IMG/VR virus record: IMGVR_UViG_2778261346_000012
Strand: one strand, 5' to 3'
DNA length: 10,598 nucleotides
Source: a virus
Taxonomy: Duplodnaviria; Heunggongvirae; Uroviricota; Caudoviricetes
In this document: positions 1,174 to 10,598 of the stretch, one piece after another
Layout: each line of letters begins with the position of its first letter
How positions within the stretch are numbered: position 1 is the first letter of the stretch
Position numbers and translations under genes: made by a program
Notes under the pieces: model-generated
The model's input: the letters and a program-made list of their open reading frames with translations, nothing else
Told to the model about the DNA's origin: nothing
The model's database searches: none

Positions 1174-3045
1174 ATGACTTATTTTACTAACACAGCAGTA
1201 AATATCGAAGGAAACAGAAAGTTAAGAACTCCTCAAATCGAGGCCTATATAAAAATAAGGGAGTTTTTCAGCGACCCTGAGCACCGTGAAGCTCTTGTGA
1301 TTCTACCTACAGGCACAGGTAAAAGTGGGTTAATTTCTATTGCACCATACGGTGTATCTCAAAAAAGAGTTTTGATTATTACACCAGGTCTTGTTACCAA
1401 AGATAGTATTAGAAAGACACAAGAAGTATTAGAAGATAACTTTTGGATAAATTATGACATTGTCTTCAGCAGTAAAGATATTCCTGTAGTTAGTGAATAT
1501 ACACCAGATATATCTTCTGAACACTTAGAACAAAGCCACATTATATTTTCTAATATACAACGTATATCTGGAAATAGAAAAAGCGCACTAATTAATAGAG
1601 TTCCAGAAGATTTCTTTGATTTTATTATCGTTGATGAAGCACATCATGCACCAGCCCAAAGCTGGCGTGATGCTCTTAAATATTTCTCTAAAGCAAAAGT
1701 TTTACATGTCACAGGAACCCCTTATCGTGGTGATGCTCAAGAAATCCCGGGAGAAATAATTCATGAAACACCATTGTCAGAAGTGATGAGAGCAAAATAT
1801 GTAAAATGGTTAAGAAAAGAAACTGTTAATGCTCATGAGTTGTACTTCACAACTCCAGATATACCTAACAAAAAACTAACTAAAGAAGATATTTTAGAAT
1901 TTAAAGATAAAGAATGGATTGAAAAAAGCATTGCCCTATCTCCGGAGTGTTCAAATGATGTGATTGAGCATAGTATTTTAAAACTAAATATACTTAAAGA
2001 AGCATCACCTAAAGTCCCACATAAAATTCTCGCTGTAGGATGTAGCATTACTCATGCCGAAGATCTAGCTAAATGGTATGAAGCAAAAGGTCTACGTGTA
2101 GTTATAATTCATAGTGAAATGGATGATGAAGTAAAAGCAGACGCTTTCCTTAACATTGAAAATCATAACGCCGATGTTGTTATATCGGTAAATATGTTAA
2201 TGGAGGGCTATGACCATAAGTATTTAAGCATTTTGGCAATCTTCAGACCTTACAGGAGCCTTAATGCATTTGCTCAAGTTGTTGGCAGAATTCTACGTGC
2301 GATTCCTGAAAACGAGATTACTGCATTTGAAATAGATAATAATGGAATTGTGATTTTTCATGAAGAAATTGGATTAAATCCAATGTGGGAAAAATTCCAG
2401 AGCGAAGTAGATAGAGCCAAAAGAACCATCAATCGAGAATATACATTTACTGATGATTATTATAGAGAAAGAGAAAACTTTTTGGCTGGTGTCGCAAGTG
2501 ATGGGGCTTACGTCAGTGATCAAGATTCTTATTTAGAAGATGTTGATTTTAACTCTTTATTCGAAGAAAAAAGAGCTGAAATAAACAAAAAAGTTGATGA
2601 ACAATTAGAAATATTCAGGAAGGCAAGTCTTGATGCAGGATTAACGTTACCTGATGACACTCTGAAATTGTTTAAAAGAGACTTAATTGAACAAGAATCT
2701 AGGAAAGCTGCTGGAGAAATAGATCAAGATCTAGTAGAAAAAAGGCCGCATCTTGCTCGTAAAAAAATGAGAGAGATCTTAACCGCTAAGATTAAAGAAG
2801 AGGCTTCTAACCTTCTGATAATAAATGGCCTCGATGAGAAAGGACAAGAACTGCAACCTATTTTTTCACCACATCTTAGGAATCTACAGACAACCGATGC
2901 AAATGATGCTATTATTGTAAAATTCATTTTGGGTAAATTGTATAGACAGTTTGGTCCTGTAAAAGATCGAGACAACCAAACTTTACAGAACTCAATTAAT
3001 TCAATACCTGAGATCTTAGCTGAAGTGTCGAGGATGTTAAAATGA
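1174..3045 (+). CDS. SF2 DEAD/DEAH-box (ResIII-like) helicase-family protein with ~240-aa C-terminal extension of unknown function; candidate defence protein
   Basis: 623-aa ORF. AGGAG RBS at 1164-1168, ATG at 1174, 9 bp after the int stop. Helicase motifs in order: PTGTGKSG (Walker A / motif I), IIVDEAHH (DEAH, motif II), VTGTP (motif III), SVNMLMEGYD (motif V-like), QVVGRILR (motif VI). C-terminal third is charged and low-complexity with no nuclease or other motif I recognise. AT-rich codon usage unlike the satellite core. Confidence 0.9.
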   Translation: MTYFTNTAVNIEGNRKLRTPQIEAYIKIREFFSDPEHREALVILPTGTGKSGLISIAPYGVSQKRVLIITPGLVTKDSIRKTQEVLEDNFWINYDIVFSSKDIPVVSEYTPDISSEHLEQSHIIFSNIQRISGNRKSALINRVPEDFFDFIIVDEAHHAPAQSWRDALKYFSKAKVLHVTGTPYRGDAQEIPGEIIHETPLSEVMRAKYVKWLRKETVNAHELYFTTPDIPNKKLTKEDILEFKDKEWIEKSIALSPECSNDVIEHSILKLNILKEASPKVPHKILAVGCSITHAEDLAKWYEAKGLRVVIIHSEMDDEVKADAFLNIENHNADVVISVNMLMEGYDHKYLSILAIFRPYRSLNAFAQVVGRILRAIPENEITAFEIDNNGIVIFHEEIGLNPMWEKFQSEVDRAKRTINREYTFTDDYYRERENFLAGVASDGAYVSDQDSYLEDVDFNSLFEEKRAEINKKVDEQLEIFRKASLDAGLTLPDDTLKLFKRDLIEQESRKAAGEIDQDLVEKRPHLARKKMREILTAKIKEEASNLLIINGLDEKGQELQPIFSPHLRNLQTTDANDAIIVKFILGKLYRQFGPVKDRDNQTLQNSINSIPEILAEVSRMLK

Positions 3046-3464
3046 TTAATGTAGCTCAAATTTTGAAAAATTTAGCTGCCTTTTGTTCAGTCAAGGGAGT
3101 TCAACCTGATGAACTTGTGACCGCTATATTTGAAAAAGAATATAAAAAAATTGAAACATACAAGGTCAATTGTCTTATTTATTTCATCATGGATTACTCC
3201 GAAAAAATTGATGATGATGAAACATTTATTTCTATGCGTTATATTTATGACGAGAATAAATCACTTATAAAAATAGAACAAAAGCTAAACAATGGACGTT
3301 ATCATACCCAGTGGGACAGAAATGACGCACTGAAGAAATATATAATAAATCAACTTTCTGAACTTCCATATCAGAAAAGAGACGAGGTCTATCAGACAAT
3401 TTTAGAAAATATACCTATTGATGCAAGTTACTCCTTACCTCCAAGGCTAAAGCTTGTTAGCTAA
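3042..3464 (+). CDS. Hypothetical 140-aa protein, translationally coupled partner of the helicase
   Basis: ATG at 3042 overlaps the helicase TGA stop (ATGA, 3042-3045). GAGGA RBS at 3030-3034. Same AT-rich composition. Followed directly by an intrinsic terminator. No motif recognised by eye. Confidence 0.75.
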   Translation: MINVAQILKNLAAFCSVKGVQPDELVTAIFEKEYKKIETYKVNCLIYFIMDYSEKIDDDETFISMRYIYDENKSLIKIEQKLNNGRYHTQWDRNDALKKYIINQLSELPYQKRDEVYQTILENIPIDASYSLPPRLKLVS

Positions 3465-3504: not shown

Positions 3505-3591
3505 CAATGCAAATATATCCAAACTCAATGTAATCTATAAAAACCGTTTTACCTCCACATTATGAATAATATAAATATACACTGGCGCGCA

Positions 3592-3610
3592 GTGCTTTCC
3601 CCGCCTCGCC
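3592..3610 (-). other. cos: cos site: 19-nt P2/P4 cohesive-end sequence
   Basis: Plus strand reads GTGCTTTCCCCGCCTCGCC, the reverse complement of GGCGAGGCGGGGAAAGCAC, which I recall as the P2/P4 cohesive end. The extended reverse complement GGCGAGGCGGGGAAAGCACTGCGCGC matches my memory of the P2 genome left end. Sits between the cargo and psu, as in P4. Confidence 0.8.
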
Positions 3611-3713
3611 CGCCCGCTTTGCAGGGCGGTTTTAATGCAGTTGCACAGTCACGCTCAGGCTGCGCCGGGAATGGCGCGGTCTGCAGAAAATGAGGCAGGA
3701 AAACGCATGCAAA

Positions 3714-3744
3714 GCCATGCACCTTATCGATGCATGGCTTTTTT
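3714..3744. terminator. Terminator-like hairpin between cos and psu; orientation ambiguous, possibly bidirectional
   Basis: Perfect 8-bp stem GCCATGCA (3714-3721) / TGCATGGC (3731-3738), 9-nt loop, then TTTTTT (3739-3744) on the plus strand. On the minus strand the same hairpin is followed only by TTTGCAT, so termination of psu here is weaker. Confidence 0.5.
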
Positions 3745-3774
3745 CAGTAAAAACGGGCGGATTTTCGGGGAATT

Positions 3775-4347
3775 TTACACAGACTGACGTGATGCCAGTT
3801 GCGCACTTTTACGCGAAAAAATCATGTTCTGCGCAGGGGTGAATTTTTCACGGCTGTCATCCACAGAAGCCGCGTCAGGCCTGAATCCGATAGTCGTTAA
3901 AATGTCGCTATCCTGTGCGGAATAATTAATTTTTTCACCCTTCGCAAGCCAGGACAGGAGGGCTTCACGCAGGGCATCTGTGGCACGCTGTATGGCACAG
4001 TTTCGGGCAATGACCGTCAGCTCACTGTAGCCCATCAGCTCCGGTGCCAGTGCCGCCGCCAGTGCTGTGCCGTGCTGCTGCATAAAATCATTCAGCCGGT
4101 CGCGGATGCTGATGTGCTGAACGGCTTCATGCGAACGAATATAACGACCGGCGGCCTGATTCACCTGCCATTTTCTGACTTCGATAATATTGCGTAATTC
4201 GTCCAGGCGGCTGACGTTTCTGCCTTCTCCTGACAGAAGCCGCAGATATTCCTGTTCGGCCGCTGCCAGCTCATTTTTGCGTTGCAGCCATGCTGCTTTG
4301 TTATTCTGACAGGTGTCAAAGGCCTGCTGTAAGGCTGTGCTTTCCAT
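3775..4347 (-). CDS. psu: Psu, polarity suppression protein (Rho antagonist / capsid decoration)
   Basis: 190-aa ORF, ATG start. Sequence MESTALQQAFDTCQNNKAAWLQRKNELAAAEQEYLRLL... matches my memory of P4 Psu in both sequence and length. Last gene of the sid-delta-psu operon, next to cos. Confidence 0.93.
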   Translation of the reverse strand: MESTALQQAFDTCQNNKAAWLQRKNELAAAEQEYLRLLSGEGRNVSRLDELRNIIEVRKWQVNQAAGRYIRSHEAVQHISIRDRLNDFMQQHGTALAAALAPELMGYSELTVIARNCAIQRATDALREALLSWLAKGEKINYSAQDSDILTTIGFRPDAASVDDSREKFTPAQNMIFSRKSAQLASRQSV

Positions 4348-4420
4348 CGTTATCTCTTTCTCATCATGCTGAAGAATAAAAATACGGTGTGCGGCGACGG
4401 CCGGGGTTAACCGGCAGCCT

Positions 4421-4921
4421 TCATTCCAGACGCAGCGAATATGATTGTGTTTTTAACCGTACTGGCGGCAGTTCCTGTTTTTCATGCAGGCGTTCTGCCA
4501 GTTCGTCCGGCGTGACCGGGCGGACAATGAAGCGGGTGATGGTCTGAAGCGTTTTAAACACCAGACCACAGCCCGGATCCGTGCACACATAAAAACGCTC
4601 GGTGACTTCCTGAGACAGACGCCGCGATGTTCTTGACAGTGCAAGGCCTTTACATCTCCGACAACAATATCCGGTAACAAGCATTCTTTTCGGGCGTTTC
4701 ATACTGCCGGAGGCTGACGTCAGTGAATCGCGGTATCTCTGTTTGCCTGAAATGTATTCCATTCCTGAATCTTTACAGTCAGAGAAAAAGCTTTCACTCG
4801 CTTCAAATGTCGCAGAGCAATAAATATTCCGGCACTGTGCAATCATTATCTTGGTGCCATCGTCCATGAAATGTGCGCGACGGGTGTGAGCAACATGTCC
4901 ACACGACGGGCAGTAAATCAT
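4421..4921 (-). CDS. delta: Delta, late-gene transcriptional activator (tandem Ogr-like zinc-finger domains)
   Basis: Chosen start is the internal ATG at 4921-4919 (MIYCPSCGH...), giving 166 aa, the P4 Delta length. It overlaps the sid TGA stop (ATGA) and has a GAGGA RBS about 10 nt upstream. The ORF-track start at 4978 is a GTG that would overlap sid by 60 nt. Two Ogr-like Cys clusters are present: CPSCGH...C..C and CCRRC...C..C. Confidence 0.88.
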   Translation of the reverse strand: MIYCPSCGHVAHTRRAHFMDDGTKIMIAQCRNIYCSATFEASESFFSDCKDSGMEYISGKQRYRDSLTSASGSMKRPKRMLVTGYCCRRCKGLALSRTSRRLSQEVTERFYVCTDPGCGLVFKTLQTITRFIVRPVTPDELAERLHEKQELPPVRLKTQSYSLRLE

Positions 4922-5652
4922 GACAGCAGTCCTCTGGCCTTCAGCTCTGCTCCCTGCTGGTCTATTTTGTCCTGCCACACCTTGCGCTGTGCCGGTGTGC
5001 CTGCCACCTCATAATCCATGTGCGGAAGTGTTGCCGCTGACAGTCCGGTCAGCCGGAGAACCGGCTCACCGGTGAGGCTGATTTGCATCTGTTTAATTTT
5101 CTGTTCCAGCGATGATTTCACCTGCTGCATGACAGCCTTTTCCGGTGCGACATAGCCCTGATGGCCGGTGGTGTTGGCGAGCGGATTTTCCTGTACCAGG
5201 ATGCTCAGATGCATTGCCCGGACAAGCGCCTCACAGGTTTCATTCAGGGCGTGTTCCAGCTCATGCTCTGCATACAGACTCAGAAGATGATGATGTGCCT
5301 TCCGGTAGGCGGTGGCCGTGCTGTCACACGCCCCTTTCAGGCGTTCACGTTCAAAATTCAGCACCACGGCCAGATTGTCATATTCCTGTACCAGCTCCCG
5401 GCGTGCCACGCGCTCAATGTGGCGCTGTTTCAGCTCGTCGCTCAGGACACCACCGGCTGCACGAAAGGCCGTGCGCCAGTCGTCAGCATCGTTTCCGTCG
5501 GCCTGCGTCAGCGCATTTTTTTCCTGCTCTGCCCGTTCAATGGCCGTGACGGTCTCATCCATCAGGCGGGCGTTCTCAAGATGAGCGACTCTGGCCTTTT
5601 CCAGTTGTGCCAGTGCGGGTTGCAGATATTCAGGGATGGTGTTGTCAGACAT
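4918..5652 (-). CDS. sid: Sid, capsid size determination (external scaffold) protein
   Basis: Start taken at ATG 5652-5650 (MSDNTIPEYLQ...), giving 244 aa, the P4 Sid length. GAGGAG RBS 8 nt upstream. The ORF-track start at 5670 is an upstream in-frame GTG. Confidence 0.9.
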   Translation of the reverse strand: MSDNTIPEYLQPALAQLEKARVAHLENARLMDETVTAIERAEQEKNALTQADGNDADDWRTAFRAAGGVLSDELKQRHIERVARRELVQEYDNLAVVLNFERERLKGACDSTATAYRKAHHHLLSLYAEHELEHALNETCEALVRAMHLSILVQENPLANTTGHQGYVAPEKAVMQQVKSSLEQKIKQMQISLTGEPVLRLTGLSAATLPHMDYEVAGTPAQRKVWQDKIDQQGAELKARGLLS

Positions 5653-5686
5653 TTTCCGGCTCCTCGTCACTTCAGGTTAAGAAAAT

Positions 5687-5742
5687 TGTGACGTACACCG
5701 GACAACAACACGACGCATTGCAGATGTGCCAGCCCTGACACA
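5687..5742 (-). promoter_or_regulatory. Psid late promoter region with two TGT-N12-ACA activator (Delta/Ogr) binding dyads
   Basis: TGTGCCAGCCCTGACACA at 5725-5742 and TGTGACGTACACCGGACA at 5687-5704, both TGT-N12-ACA, centred 38 bp apart. If the distal dyad is at about -55 the TSS falls near 5678, some 26 nt upstream of the sid ATG. TGT-N12-ACA at -55 is the established P2/P4 late-promoter activator site. Confidence 0.6.
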
Positions 5743-5821
5743 GGAGACTCATCCTCAGACCGGCAAGCCAGGAAAAGGTCGCAGGAAAAACCGGCTTACT
5801 GTTTGTTTTTTTATATTTTAC

Positions 5822-5925
5822 TGTTCACCTCTGTTCACCTTAATAAAAAAGATAAGTAATACAGTAAGTTAAAGGGTGAACAATCGCAGTAATGACTGTT
5901 CACCGTCTGTTCACCACTGTTCACC
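5822..5925. repeat. ori: Origin of replication (ori): six TGTTCACC type-I iterons (alpha-binding octamers)
   Basis: TGTTCACC at 5822-5829, 5832-5839, 5897-5904, 5908-5915, 5918-5925, plus an inverted copy GGTGAACA at 5875-5882. Direct copies are spaced 10-11 bp apart. Flanked by very AT-rich DNA (5805-5820 and 5935-6030). From memory, P4 alpha binds TGTTCACC octamers in ori and crr. Confidence 0.75.
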
Positions 5926-6083
5926 CGTTGATGGGCTTTTTGTGCTGTTTATTACTTTTTATTTTTATTAATTCACTGAAATAAATAAGAAAAAACGATT
6001 TGTATTTCACTATAATTTTTTCCAGCTCCTTCCAGAGCGTTTTAAAGCTATCTGGCGCTGATGTACAAAAAACGCACAGCCAT

Positions 6084-6101
6084 TGTAAGGCTGCCGGAAC
6101 A
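6084..6101 (+). promoter_or_regulatory. PLL late promoter activator site (TGT-N12-ACA dyad)
   Basis: TGTAAGGCTGCCGGAACA at 6084-6101. If centred at -55 the TSS is near 6147, about 57 nt upstream of vis and about 395 bp upstream of the predicted PLE start. That fits the literature statement, as I recall it, that PLL lies about 400 nt upstream of PLE. Confidence 0.55.
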
Positions 6102-6203
6102 AATCCCCCCTGTTGCGTCTGCCAAAAATATTCACAAAATAAAGCGCTACCCGAAGCCGGACGGACTTATCCGGTGCTGTATGGACATTAACGAGGTAGC
6201 CCG

Positions 6204-6470
6204 ATGCAAGCTGTTTTTTCTTCCCCGTCTCCCGCCCCTGTGACGCCACTGATGCCGCTGCCGGACATCACGCAGGAGCGTTTTTTACGTCTGCCGGAAG
6301 TGATGCACCTGTGCGGCCTGTCACGCTCGACCATCTATGAACTCATCCGTAAGGGGGAATTTCCGCCGCAGGTGAGTCTTGGCGGTAAAAATGTGGCCTG
6401 GCTGCACTCTGAAGTCACCGCATGGATGGCCGGCCGCATTGCCGGACGCAAACGGGGGTATGACGCATGA
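6204..6470 (+). CDS. vis: Vis, AlpA-family helix-turn-helix regulator / excision factor (P4 orf88)
   Basis: 88-aa ORF, GAGG RBS 7 nt upstream of ATG 6204. AlpA-like core [30 protein letters not shown]. Stop overlaps the eta start (ATGA). Confidence 0.85.
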
Positions 6471-7066
6471 TGATGCCCGCTCTGCAAAAACTCCCTTTTT
6501 CTGGCTTGCCTTTTTCCGGCATTTGCGGATATAGTCTTTCCGTTGCCGCAAAATCGGCAGCCGGGCGTGAGAACCCGTGTAGCTCGAAGGCGACATATGA
6601 CGCGCCATGCGTCTTTTTTTGTGTCGCAATCAATGCCACAGAGCGCCAGATTATGGTGTGGTGTGTGGTCAGTCGTGCAGATGGCATTCCGTGCATCCTG
6701 CCTGCGTCCGCTCATTATGCCGCAGAGTCAATGGTAGCTCAGGCGGGGCAGCCTCCGGGCTGGCCGGTATTCTTCGAGGCCGGTATTCTCACCCCCGTCT
6801 GGGCTATCGCCATCGAGCGTGAGAACTCCGGCGATAGCAGTTATTTGCTACTCGAAGGAGGCTGCCTTATGGCTACAACCCTTACCCCCTCACACCCTGA
6901 ATTTGTCTTTGTGTTTGCGGCTGTCCGTCGCGCAGACCGTCATCCCCGTATCTGTATGCTTCGCACCGTCGCCGGTGATGAACGCAGTGCCCGCCGTTCC
7001 CTTGTCCGTGACTATGTGCTCTCCCTTGCTGCCCGTCTGCCGGTGGTGGAGGTGTCCCGTGCGTAA
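6467..7066 (+). CDS. eta: Eta (P4 orf199); reading frame spans PLE, the cI RNA region and the nested kil gene
   Basis: 199-codon ORF beginning with three consecutive ATGs (6467-6475). This fits my recollection of P4 eta as 197-199 aa with three candidate start codons. Whether the whole frame is translated is uncertain because an RNA gene and promoter lie inside it. Confidence 0.6.
6506..6535 (+). promoter_or_regulatory. PLE, candidate constitutive sigma70 early promoter
   Basis: -35 TTGCCT (6506-6511), 18-bp spacer, -10 TATAGT (6530-6535). Predicted TSS near 6542, just upstream of seqA. Confidence 0.5.
6565..6590 (+). promoter_or_regulatory. seqA-like immunity target in the PLE leader
   Basis: GCGTGAGAAC...CTCGAAGG. 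Both blocks are complementary to the seqB core inside the predicted CI RNA (CTTCGAG...TTCTCAC at 6772-6792) and recur at 6817-6858. Confidence 0.5.
6737..6804 (+). ncRNA. cI: CI immunity RNA (P4 cI / C4-type antisense RNA), boundaries approximate
   Basis: A 12-bp closing stem (GCTCAGGCGGGG 6737-6748 pairs with CCCCGTCTGGGC 6793-6804, including 2 G-U pairs) encloses about 44 nt that contain the seqB-like segment complementary to the upstream and downstream targets. About 68 nt, close to the ~69-nt size I recall for P4 CI RNA. Lies between PLE and kil as in P4. Confidence 0.5.
6817..6858 (+). promoter_or_regulatory. seqC-like immunity target overlapping the kil translation initiation region
   Basis: GCGTGAGAAC (6817-6826) and CTCGAAGG (6851-6858) repeat the seqA blocks. 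The second block overlaps the kil RBS AAGGAGG (6855-6861). Confidence 0.5.
6869..7066 (+). CDS. kil: Kil, 65-aa protein nested in-frame in the 3' end of eta
   Basis: In-frame ATG at 6869 with an AAGGAGG RBS 7 nt upstream gives exactly 65 codons to the shared TAA stop. Matches my recollection of P4 kil as a 65-aa product and the first translated gene downstream of PLE. Confidence 0.6.
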
Positions 7067-7346
7067 TAAAAAAGCCCCTCAGACCGTCTCAGCGCGTCAT
7101 GACGCCCGTGAACACCTCAGCATTGAGGCTTACCATAAGCTCAACCGCGCCAGCGCCGTATCCCAGTTTGTTGGGGGTGATTTGATTCACCGTGAACTCT
7201 CCGGCCTGCATCAGCTCTACATTCCGCATATTTTCAGCTACCTGAATGAAGATATTGATTTTGTGCTGAATGAACTGAAAGCCAAAGGCCTGTGCCGCGA
7301 TTTTCTCGCCCAGCAGAAAGACCGGGGAGACAGGACGCATGTTTGA
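7059..7346 (+). CDS. epsilon: Epsilon, helper-prophage derepressor (anti-repressor of the P2 C repressor)
   Basis: GTG start at 7059 with a GGAGG RBS (7048-7052) 6 nt upstream, overlapping the eta/kil stop. 95 codons to TGA 7344-7346, matching the ~95 aa I recall for P4 epsilon. The ORF-track frame extends upstream to 6819 but overlaps kil and lacks a convincing start there. Stop overlaps the orf151 ATG. Confidence 0.55.
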
Positions 7347-7794
7347 TTTTCCCCAGCCCGGTGAGATTTACCGTTCTGCCGGTTTTCCCGATGTGGCCGT
7401 GGTCGGCATTCTGGAAGACGGTATTCCGTGGGAAATGCCGTACCGCTGCCCGGAAATTGTCTGGAACCCGTACCGCCGTAAATTCAGTATCCTTGTGCGT
7501 ATCCTCGCTGACGGACGCACCACAGACATCCCGCTGGGGCGTTTTCTGCGGGAATTTACCTGTGACCGTCCTGACCTGTTTAAACGCAGCCCCGTAAACC
7601 GGCATGCGGTACTGAAAGAAATGGCCGGAGACCCGGAATTACAGAAATGGCGGGAAAAATATCTGGATATTTACCCGCAGGACACTGTTCCGGTCAGCCG
7701 GGCAGCACCGGTGGCGCGGGAATGGCGGGAAATTCCCCGCACGGAGCCTGACCCGGAAACCACCCCGGATAACAGTTACCGCAATTATCTGTAA
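7339..7794 (+). CDS. Conserved P4 left-operon protein (orf151 equivalent), function unknown
   Basis: 151-aa ORF, ATG start overlapping the epsilon stop. Size and position match P4 orf151 as I recall it. Confidence 0.75.
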   Translation: MFDFPQPGEIYRSAGFPDVAVVGILEDGIPWEMPYRCPEIVWNPYRRKFSILVRILADGRTTDIPLGRFLREFTCDRPDLFKRSPVNRHAVLKEMAGDPELQKWREKYLDIYPQDTVPVSRAAPVAREWREIPRTEPDPETTPDNSYRNYL

Positions 7795-7929
7795 TTAAAA
7801 AACGACCCCCGAAAAATTAAATGTGCGTATTCGCGCAGGGATACGCACGTCTTCAGGAGACGCAGATATGCCTTATCAGTTAATGCAACCGGCACGGAAT
7901 GCAGTCATCTGTCACAGGGAGAAAAGCAA

Positions 7930-8250
7930 ATGAAAACACCCTTACCGCCCGTCTTACGCGCTGCCCTTTACCGTCGCGCTGTCGCCTGTGCCTGGCTGAC
8001 CGTGTGCGAACGTCAGCACCGCTACCCGCATCTCACCCTTGAGTCACTGGAGGCGGCCATCGCCGCTGAGCTGGAAGGCTTTTATCTGCGCCAGCACGGT
8101 GAGGAAAAAGGGCGTCAGATAGCCTGTGCCCTGCTGGAAGATTTAATGGAATCCGGCCCCCTGAAGGCCGCGCCGTCGCTGTCCTTTCTCGGGCTGGTTG
8201 TGATGGATGAACTCTGTGCCCGTCACATAAAAGCGCCGGTACTGCACTGA
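7930..8250 (+). CDS. Conserved P4 left-operon protein (orf106 equivalent), function unknown
   Basis: 106-aa ORF, AGGGAG RBS 8 nt upstream of ATG 7930. Immediately upstream of alpha. Confidence 0.7.
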
Positions 8251-8264
8251 AGGAGAACAACACC

Positions 8265-10598
8265 ATGAAAATGAACGTAACCGCCACCGTCAGCCATGCG
8301 CTCGGCCACTGGCCGCGTATTCTCCCGGCGCTGGGGATTCAGGTGCTGAAAAACCGTCATCAGCCCTGTCCGGTCTGTGGCGGGAGTGACCGCTTCCGTT
8401 TTGATGACAGGGAGGGGCGCGGCACCTGGTACTGCAATCAGTGTGGTGCCGGTGACGGCCTGAAACTGGTTGAAAAGGTGTTTGGTGTTTCCCCGTCCGA
8501 CGCGGCCGCAAAGGTGGCTGCCGTGACCGGCAGCCTGCCCACGGCTGACCCGGCAGTGACGGCCGCCGCCGGCGCTGAAACAGACGCTGCCCGGAAGAAC
8601 GCCGCCGCACTGGCACAAACCCTGATGGCAAAAACCCGTCCCGGAACCGGTAACGCCTACCTGACCCGCAAGGGCTTTCCCGGCCGGGAATGCCGGATGC
8701 TGACCGGCACACACAGAGCCGGTGGCGTGAGCTGGCGCGCCGGTGACCTTGTGGTGCCACTGTATGACGACAGCGGCGAACTGGTTAACCTTCAGTTAAT
8801 CAGTGCTGACGGCCGTAAGCGCACCCTGAAAGGCGGACAGGTCAGGGGCACCTGTCACACCCTTGAAGGACAGAATCAGGCCGGAAAACGTCTGTGGATA
8901 GCGGAGGGATACGCGACCGCACTTACCGTACATCACCTGACCGGTGAAACGGTGATGGTGGCGCTTTCTTCCGTGAACCTCCTTTCTCTGGCCAGCCTTG
9001 CCCGGCAGAAGCATCCGGCCTGTCAGATTGTCCTTGCCGCAGACCGTGACCTCAGCGGTGACGGCCAGAAAAAAGCCGCCGCAGCCGCAGATGCGTGTGA
9101 GGGCGTTGTTGCCCTGCCGCCGGTCTTCGGTGACTGGAATGATGCCTTCACGCAGTACGGCGGGGAAGCCACCCGTAAGGCCATTTATGATGCCATCCGG
9201 CCACCGGCTGAAAGCCCGTTCGACACCATGAGCGAAGCGGAGTTTTCCGCCATGAGTACCAGCGAAAAGGCCATGCGTATCTATGAGCATTACGGCGAGG
9301 CGCTCGCGGTCGATGCCAACGGCCAGCTTCTGTCCCGCTATGAAAATGGTGTCTGGAAGGTGCTGCCGCCACAGGACTTTGCCCGGGATGTGGCCGGGCT
9401 GTTTCAGCGTCTGCGCGCGCCGTTCTCCTCCGGGAAAGTGGCCTCCGTGGTGGACACCCTGAAGCTGATTATTCCGCAGCAGGAAGCCCCCTCCCGCCGC
9501 CTGATTGGCTTTCGTAACGGCGTGCTCGACACGCAGAACGGCACGTTCCACCCGCACAGTCCGTCACACTGGATGCGCACCCTGTGCGATGTGGATTTCA
9601 CCCCGCCGGTGGACGGTGAAACGCTGGAGACCCACGCCCCCGCGTTCTGGCGCTGGCTTGACCGTGCCGCCGGTGGCCGTGCGGAAAAACGCGACGTGAT
9701 TCTGGCCGCACTGTTTATGGTGCTGGCAAACCGCTACGACTGGCAGCTCTTTCTGGAGGTGACCGGTCCCGGCGGCAGCGGCAAAAGTATCATGGCCGAA
9801 ATAGCCACCCTGCTGGCCGGGGAGGATAACGCCACGTCGGCCACCATTGAGACGCTGGAATCCCCGCGTGAACGTGCCGCGTTAACTGGCTTCTCACTGA
9901 TACGCCTGCCGGACCAGGAAAAATGGAGCGGCGACGGAGCCGGACTCAAGGCTATCACCGGCGGCGATGCGGTGTCCGTTGACCCGAAATACCGGGATGC
10001 GTACTCCACGCATATCCCGGCGGTGATTCTGGCCGTGAACAATAACCCGATGCGCTTCACCGACCGCAGCGGCGGCGTGTCACGCCGGCGGGTGATTATT
10101 CACTTCCCGGAACAGATAGCCCCGCAGGAGCGCGACCCGCAGCTTAAGGACAAAATCACCCGCGAGCTGGCGGTCATCGTGCGTCACCTGATGCAGAAGT
10201 TCAGCGACCCGATGCTCGCCCGGTCACTGCTTCAGTCCCAGCAGAACTCAGACGAGGCACTGAACATCAAACGGGATGCCGACCCGACGTTTGATTTTAT
10301 CGGCTATCTGGAAACCCTGCCGCAGACCAGCGGCATGTATATGGGGAACGCCAGTATCATCCCGCGTAATTACCGTAAATACCTCTATCACGCCTATCTG
10401 GCCTACATGGAGGCAAACGGCTACCGGAATGTACTCAGTCTGAAAATGTTCGGGCTGGGGCTGCCGGTGATGCTGAAGGAATACGGACTGAATTACGAGA
10501 AGCGCCATACCAAACAGGGGATACAGACCAACCTGACACTGAAAGAGGAAAGCTACGGCGACTGGCTGCCAAAATGTGACGCCCCTGCAACAACCTGA
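8265..10598 (+). CDS. alpha: Alpha, multifunctional primase-helicase replication protein
   Basis: 777-aa ORF, the P4 alpha length. AGGAG RBS 9 nt upstream. N-terminal zinc ribbon CPVCGGSDRFRFDD...YCNQCG. Primase/TOPRIM-like WIAEGYATALTV and LAADRDLSGDGQ. Walker A VTGPGGSGKS in the helicase domain. C-terminal region is expected to bind the iterons. Confidence 0.95.
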   Translation: MKMNVTATVSHALGHWPRILPALGIQVLKNRHQPCPVCGGSDRFRFDDREGRGTWYCNQCGAGDGLKLVEKVFGVSPSDAAAKVAAVTGSLPTADPAVTAAAGAETDAARKNAAALAQTLMAKTRPGTGNAYLTRKGFPGRECRMLTGTHRAGGVSWRAGDLVVPLYDDSGELVNLQLISADGRKRTLKGGQVRGTCHTLEGQNQAGKRLWIAEGYATALTVHHLTGETVMVALSSVNLLSLASLARQKHPACQIVLAADRDLSGDGQKKAAAAADACEGVVALPPVFGDWNDAFTQYGGEATRKAIYDAIRPPAESPFDTMSEAEFSAMSTSEKAMRIYEHYGEALAVDANGQLLSRYENGVWKVLPPQDFARDVAGLFQRLRAPFSSGKVASVVDTLKLIIPQQEAPSRRLIGFRNGVLDTQNGTFHPHSPSHWMRTLCDVDFTPPVDGETLETHAPAFWRWLDRAAGGRAEKRDVILAALFMVLANRYDWQLFLEVTGPGGSGKSIMAEIATLLAGEDNATSATIETLESPRERAALTGFSLIRLPDQEKWSGDGAGLKAITGGDAVSVDPKYRDAYSTHIPAVILAVNNNPMRFTDRSGGVSRRRVIIHFPEQIAPQERDPQLKDKITRELAVIVRHLMQKFSDPMLARSLLQSQQNSDEALNIKRDADPTFDFIGYLETLPQTSGMYMGNASIIPRNYRKYLYHAYLAYMEANGYRNVLSLKMFGLGLPVMLKEYGLNYEKRHTKQGIQTNLTLKEESYGDWLPKCDAPATT

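Follow-up and report, generated by a model that had tools for sequence, protein, structure and literature searches.

A cluster of short repeats between sid and ORF88 raises the question of whether this locus is the replication origin of the element that carries it and, if so, which of its parts are held constant among related elements. We addressed this question for the window (the whole stretch of 10,598 bases of DNA analyzed here) by comparison with P4 and with P4-like loci in bacterial assemblies. Judged by sequence, the array is almost certainly the ori (ori1) of a P4-type satellite prophage. The preliminary description had read the region as a replication origin, and this reading is borne out by the identity of the array to the P4 ori, which is annotated as such in X51522. 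The origin is an already known one: it is the textbook, well-studied P4 ori, with no base change in the array, in a P4-like prophage of Escherichia coli O145.

Window positions 3611 to 10598 are 98.0% identical to P4 (X51522, 11624 back to 4636). Over its entire length, the window is 99.6 to 99.9% identical to chromosomal sequences of E. coli O145, and many O145 genomes carry near-identical copies. In the best O145 match (NZ_CP031353), the window is a prophage that runs from the integrase gene to the alpha gene and is flanked by chromosomal genes. The window itself is bounded by the integrase start codon at its first end and the alpha stop codon at its last, and its overall GC content is 0.495. 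The P4 core open reading frames (ORFs) psu, delta, sid, ORF88, epsilon, ORF151, ORF106, alpha, and int are all full length in the prophage. ORF106 is presumably cnr, the copy-number regulator acting on alpha.

Several observations concern other parts of the window. The cargo between int and cos differs from that of P4, which has gop/beta/cII at this place. In the window, the int-psu defense hotspot (1174 to 3464) instead holds a protein of 623 amino acids with ResIII, DEAD, and Helicase_C domains, which gives weak PADLOC matches to the helicase cores of type IV, I, and III restriction enzymes, and an overlapping second protein of 140 amino acids without a family match. The same three Pfam domains have been described for Crouga, a new candidate system of the P4 hotspot (PMC13586616; 2026, NAR), to which the 623-residue protein may belong. 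At positions 3578 to 3655, which correspond to the P4 genome end, the window is 83 to 89% identical to P2-like phages of Yersinia and Klebsiella, consistent with a shared cos packaging site. An Rfam search retrieved the immunity RNA system (c4-a1b1 targets, 6529 to 6581; isrK, 6542 to 6619; C4 antisense RNA, 6727 to 6814) and no known RNA family overlapping the origin, all three matches lying within 6529 to 6814. Because differences from P4 also cluster near these RNAs (10 in 6500 to 6599 and 11 in 6700 to 6899), the immunity specificity might depart from that of P4.

The iteron array and the annotated P4 origin

The repeat unit, TGTTCACC, occurs as six exact copies in the window, five direct and one inverted, all within 104 bp (5822 to 5925), and no further exact copy is present in the window outside the array. 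Dinucleotide-preserving shuffles contained a mean of 0.32 copies and reached at least six in 0 of 200 cases, which rules out chance clustering. The preliminary description had counted five direct copies and one inverted copy within about 100 bp and had placed the direct copies one helical turn (10 to 11 bp) apart. Both statements hold: the copies are where it had put them (Table 1), far beyond chance, and adjacent direct copies are spaced by 10, 11, and 10 bp, with 65 bp separating the two clusters. Relative to the first iteron, the sites start at offsets of 0, 10, 53 (inverted), 75, 86, and 96. As all six starts lie about 2 bp or less from multiples of 10.5 bp, the array can fairly be called phased, and the six iterons lie roughly on one helix face.

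The correspondence with P4 is exact in this region. The feature labeled "origin of DNA replication" in X51522 (<9086..9809) equals window positions 5426 to 6149, and the six "ori type 1 repeat" features of that record map one-to-one onto the six window copies, so that the window holds six type I iterons in the P4 arrangement. An alignment with P4 is free of differences from 5650 to 5951, and in a full-length comparison, the 308 bases from 5644 to 5951, which include the entire array, show zero differences from P4. A full-text search of the literature for the iteron motif returned primer matches only.

A number of other iteron-like sequences were set aside. One-mismatch copies occur at chance level in the window (13 in total versus 8.26 expected), and the seven that are scattered beyond the array were therefore rejected as extra degenerate iterons that might represent crr or ori2. 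The iteron in reverse complement, GGTGAACA, is also found within the alpha gene of many related loci, at about nucleotides 1766 to 1769, and the window has it with one mismatch at 10034 to 10041. This sequence encodes the Val-Asn of the conserved AVNNN helicase motif and is for that reason regarded as a coding coincidence rather than an iteron. A "terminator-like" hairpin retrieved on the minus strand by the promoter/terminator scan (5875 to 5904) is merely the head-to-head pair of iterons 3 and 4.

Table 1. Coordinates of the origin region, its neighboring genes, and the initiator gene in the window
Feature	Position	Strand	Description
sid	boundary 5652, leftward	-	Same gene order as in P4
Two TGT-N12-ACA activator-type sites upstream of sid	5687-5704, 5725-5742	-	Pattern match; identical in P4
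Left AT-rich flank	5799-5821		GC 0.17; family median GC 0.22, length fixed at 22-23 bp
Type I iteron 1	5822-5829	+	Exact TGTTCACC; 10-mer ACTGTTCACC from 5820; P4 9406-9413, "ori type 1 repeat"
Type I iteron 2	5832-5839	+	Exact; P4 9396-9403, "ori type 1 repeat"
Internal AT-rich spacer, 35 bp, between iterons 2 and 3	5840-5874		GC 0.17; best candidate for an unwinding element
Type I iteron 3, inverted	5875-5882	-	Exact; P4 9353-9360
Type I iteron 4	5897-5904	+	Exact; P4 9331-9338
Type I iteron 5	5908-5915	+	Exact; P4 9320-9327
Type I iteron 6	5918-5925	+	Exact; P4 9310-9317
Right AT-rich tract	5945-6020		GC 0.16; holds 5949-5983
Divergent patch versus P4	5952-6066		Spans the position of the three P4 "ori type 2" decamers (window 6029-6058)
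TGT-N12-ACA activator-type site upstream of ORF88	6084-6101	+	Pattern match; P4 keeps TGT/ACA, 3 spacer bases differ
ORF88	start 6204, rightward	+	87/88 identical to P4 ORF88
ORF106 (DUF5375, Pfam)	7930-8250	+	106/106 identical to P4 ORF106; just upstream of alpha
Alpha, primase-helicase initiator	8265-10598	+	Intact 777-codon ORF; 769/776 identical to P4 alpha
Alpha origin-binding domain	residues 671-770, nt 10275-10574	+	Identical at every position to PDB 1KA8

Conservation across P4-like origins

To place the array in its family, we used alpha as a probe and retrieved 80 P4-like loci from bacterial assemblies sampled at one genome per species, with alpha identities of 57 to 100%. From these loci, 53 P4-like origins from many enterobacterial genera were aligned with the window as the reference. 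Where upstream DNA was available, the corresponding position held an array of the same layout, the most distant elements included, and the offsets listed above were kept within 2 bp even at alpha identities of 57 to 60%. Four loci (L005, L006, L007, and L040) are contigs of 4 to 6 kb whose alpha is 98 to 100% identical to that of the window. They come from metagenome bins labeled Ferruginibacter, Clostridiales, "bacterium," and Ruminococcus, but misbinning of E. coli satellite DNA is the most likely explanation.

In the 53 origins, identity to the window is 0.91 in the iteron columns, 0.68 in the spacers within the array, and 0.26 to 0.46 in the right flank. Selection of loci required three of the six sites but never made use of those at 5822 and 5918, and these selection-free sites are still conserved at 0.80 and 0.94, respectively. 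The values for the other sites are 0.91 (5832), 0.95 (5875), 0.90 (5897), and 0.94 (5908). Iteron 1 is thus the least conserved of the six and often reads TATTCAC elsewhere. Within the iteron, TTCAC is the invariant core of a conserved 10-mer unit, A-C-T-[G/A/C]-T-T-C-A-C-[C/T]. In a Pantoea-type clade (L046, L048 to L053, L056, and L076), most of the six sites systematically have CTTCACC rather than TGTTCACC; the alpha DNA-binding domain of this clade is about 61 to 70% (roughly 66%) identical to that of P4. This pattern could reflect covariation of the initiator and its iteron.

The same alignment bears on where the origin might open. The preliminary description had proposed that the very AT-rich DNA on both sides of the array could act as an unwinding element. 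Both flanks are indeed very AT-rich; conservation, however, favors a third, internal stretch, namely, the spacer between iterons 2 and 3. Local GC content is 0.15 to 0.20 at 5940 to 6019, 0.225 at 5840 to 5879, and 0.30 at 5800 to 5839. By duplex stability, the thermodynamically weakest DNA is in the right tract, with the minimum over all 35-mers at 5949 to 5983, whereas the conserved AT-rich DNA is the internal spacer, which ranks 21st lowest among 10,563 35-mers. Among the 53 origins, the spacer is fixed in length at 34 to 35 bp and well conserved in sequence, and its median GC content is 0.17; the right tract can be anything from 72 to 97 bp long, with a median GC content of 0.28 and poor sequence conservation. 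Because the spacer, unlike the right tract, is conserved across the family, we prefer it as the unwinding candidate, and it is more likely than the flanks to be the essential AT-rich element. Deletion mapping reportedly limited ori1 to 123 bp, in which an AT-rich region of 35 bp accompanies the six iterons, and small insertions are said to destroy ori1 function. The window has an AT-rich region of about this size at 5840 to 5874, and this internal spacer is probably the equivalent of the published region.

The right flank is also where the window and P4 part. A total of 141 differences from P4 are spread over 7 kb, and 34 of them fall within the 115 bp of the divergent patch (Table 1), a sharp mosaic boundary with the adjoining 308 bp that have none. 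At 6029 to 6058, only 15 of the 30 positions match the P4 type 2 decamers and no internal repetition is left, so that the three "ori type 2" decamers of P4 ori1 are absent from the window; this position is also the least conserved stretch of the family (0.26). In their place, the patch carries an imperfect palindrome, CCAGAGCGTTTTAAAGCTATCTGG (6032 to 6055). Among E. coli genomes with at least 80% query coverage, 374 have the patch allele of the window and 436 have that of P4; as both alleles are common in E. coli, we ruled out the patch as an unusual feature. Covariation of the patch with a neighboring regulator was ruled out by the match of ORF88 and ORF106 to their P4 counterparts (Table 1). 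As read from these alignments, the patch represents allelic variation of an ordinary kind next to a core that does not vary. The type 2 repeats, which have no known requirement in P4, are absent here and least conserved in the family, and the allele that replaces them is as frequent in E. coli as that of P4. A need for these repeats is therefore unlikely, and they would seem to be a P4-strain feature dispensable for origin function.

Initiator, crr, and proposed mechanism

The element encodes its own cognate initiator, alpha, with a C-terminal winged-helix domain, 2.4 kb from the array. PDB entry 1KA8, to which this domain is identical (Table 1), is the crystallized P4 origin-binding domain. 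P4 alpha binds the P4 origin repeats through its winged-helix domain, after which unwinding and priming follow (PMC4234260, a secondary source). That P4 alpha binds type I iterons at both ori and crr, as the preliminary description had stated, agrees with the repeats annotated in X51522, with PMC4234260 (for ori), and with the 1KA8 identity.

[quoted passage not shown] Because the window ends at the alpha stop codon, crr is outside its view. A motif scan of the downstream flank, which had been suggested earlier as a way to find crr, located the expected cluster in the source genome 51 to 313 bp past the window end (window-equivalent 10649 to 10911; 14649 to 14911 in locus L003), with five exact TGTTCACC copies and several degenerate ones. 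This region is colinear with the P4 crr, from which it hardly differs over the length of both 120-bp repeats, and similarity to P4 stops directly after the second of these repeats, at the expected prophage end. A second cis site with type I iterons is therefore present about 4.5 to 4.8 kb away, downstream of alpha. The P4 crr uses the same TGTTCACC motif as the array, in both orientations, and, per the P4 annotation, is bound by the same protein; it differs from the array in arrangement, consisting of two 120-bp direct repeats with five sites each. With ori, alpha, and crr all located, the sequence components of the P4 replicon are complete.

In comparison with the P4 ori (ori1; X51522/NC_001609), the locus thus has the same six iterons, spacers, and left flank, the same position between sid and ORF88, the same initiator with an identical DNA-binding domain, and the same partner site, crr. 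It differs in that the 115 bp on the right are the other allele, in which the type 2 repeats of P4 are lost. Binding, unwinding, priming, and the crr requirement are carried over here from experiments on P4. By this analogy, alpha of the element (primase, helicase, and C-terminal winged-helix domain) would bind the six phased TGTTCACC sites and also their relatives in crr, at a distance of 4.8 kb. Opening of the origin would take place in AT-rich DNA next to the bound sites, with the 35-bp spacer that separates sites 2 and 3 as the most probable location; alpha would then unwind and prime, and host polymerase would replicate the excised circle.

Other replicons share parts of this design. Phased direct repeats, an element-encoded initiator, and adjoining AT-rich DNA are also found at the origins of pSC101, P1, F, and R6K and at lambda ori (O protein). 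P4 is unlike these plasmid and lambdoid iteron origins in that its initiator is itself helicase and primase and in that it also needs crr, a second iteron site located at a distance; P4 replication is reportedly independent of host DnaA, DnaB, DnaC, and DnaG. The origins of SaPI/PICI elements (Rep helicase, Pri primase) likewise combine a satellite-encoded initiator-helicase with short iterons flanking an AT-rich core. In contrast to P4, they employ unrelated proteins and motifs and consist of a single-site origin next to the rep gene.

Divergent promoters and alternative readings

The array lies between sid and the ORF88 (left) operon, transcribed leftward and rightward, respectively. TGT-N12-ACA, the recognition pattern of the Delta/Ogr late activators, is present on both sides of the array, in agreement with its earlier placement between divergent promoters. 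The window contains five matches to this pattern versus 2.44 expected, a count that is not significant; three of the five flank the array. From these matches, we infer that 5687 to 5742 is the late promoter region of sid and that 6084 to 6101 is the PLL promoter region. The sid promoter is, we assume, Psid, activated by Delta. Literature searches on Psid and PLL found nothing. In 49 of the 53 P4-like origins, the sid-side site is at a nearly fixed distance from the array, its center mostly 134 to 142 bp left of the inverted iteron (loci L008 to L081), while an exact site on the ORF88 side is present in only 8 of the 53.

The preliminary description had further inferred from this placement that origin firing and late transcription could be coupled. 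In such a scheme, alpha loading or origin firing would be tied to late transcription, with either divergent transcription helping to open the origin or iteron-bound alpha modulating the sid promoter. The location of the array between the sites at 5725 to 5742 and 6084 to 6101, the nearly fixed position of the sid-side site relative to the array, and the lack of any difference from P4 throughout 5644 to 5951 all speak for it. The absence of indels in a compact 90-bp interval could by itself fix the distance, however, and the ORF88 side is variable in length and sequence as well as in its exact site. In addition, P4 replication in vitro reportedly needs no RNA polymerase, so coupling would not be obligatory. 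A search of the literature found no paper on coupling of P4 origin firing with late transcription. Overall, we consider such coupling unlikely. The near-fixed distance of the activator site means that alpha on the iterons could tune sid-delta-psu transcription, and a version of the idea that unites the array with the late promoter of sid in a single conserved module, whereby alpha tunes this transcription or transcription tunes origin opening, seems to us slightly less probable still.

Two further readings concern the nature of the array itself. The origin could be P4 type by descent while the prophage is a decayed relic in which the array no longer functions, given that P4-like elements are often defective and that the primase is their most often pseudogenized core gene (PMC13586616). 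In this prophage, every P4 core ORF is full length, alpha is 99% identical to that of P4, ori is identical and crr nearly identical to their P4 counterparts, and the near-identical copies in many O145 genomes (see above) point the same way, making decay improbable. It is far more doubtful that the repeats are operators for a regulator of the sid and ORF88 promoters rather than an origin. Their intergenic position between divergent operons would suit operators, as would the resemblance of the head-to-head pair 5875/5897 to an operator palindrome, but another cluster of the motif lies downstream of alpha, away from any promoter, and the activator sites at the promoters are a different motif. Moreover, X51522 marks the region as a mapped origin, and the protein known to read the motif is the replication initiator. 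We consider the operator reading barely credible and retain the identification of the array as the P4-type ori, against which no feature of the sequence speaks.

As such, the window is correctly annotated as a P4-type satellite prophage that looks complete: it contains ori, alpha, and ORF106, and crr lies just beyond it. If the array and the sid late promoter did form a module, genome amplification would be linked to capsid-size hijacking. Across the family, the constrained unit is the six-site layout together with the 35-bp internal AT-rich spacer, with TTCAC as the core, whereas the right flank and the type 2 repeats vary freely. Rather than a discovery, this comparative picture is a modest refinement for P4 phasmid engineering and for satellite annotation.
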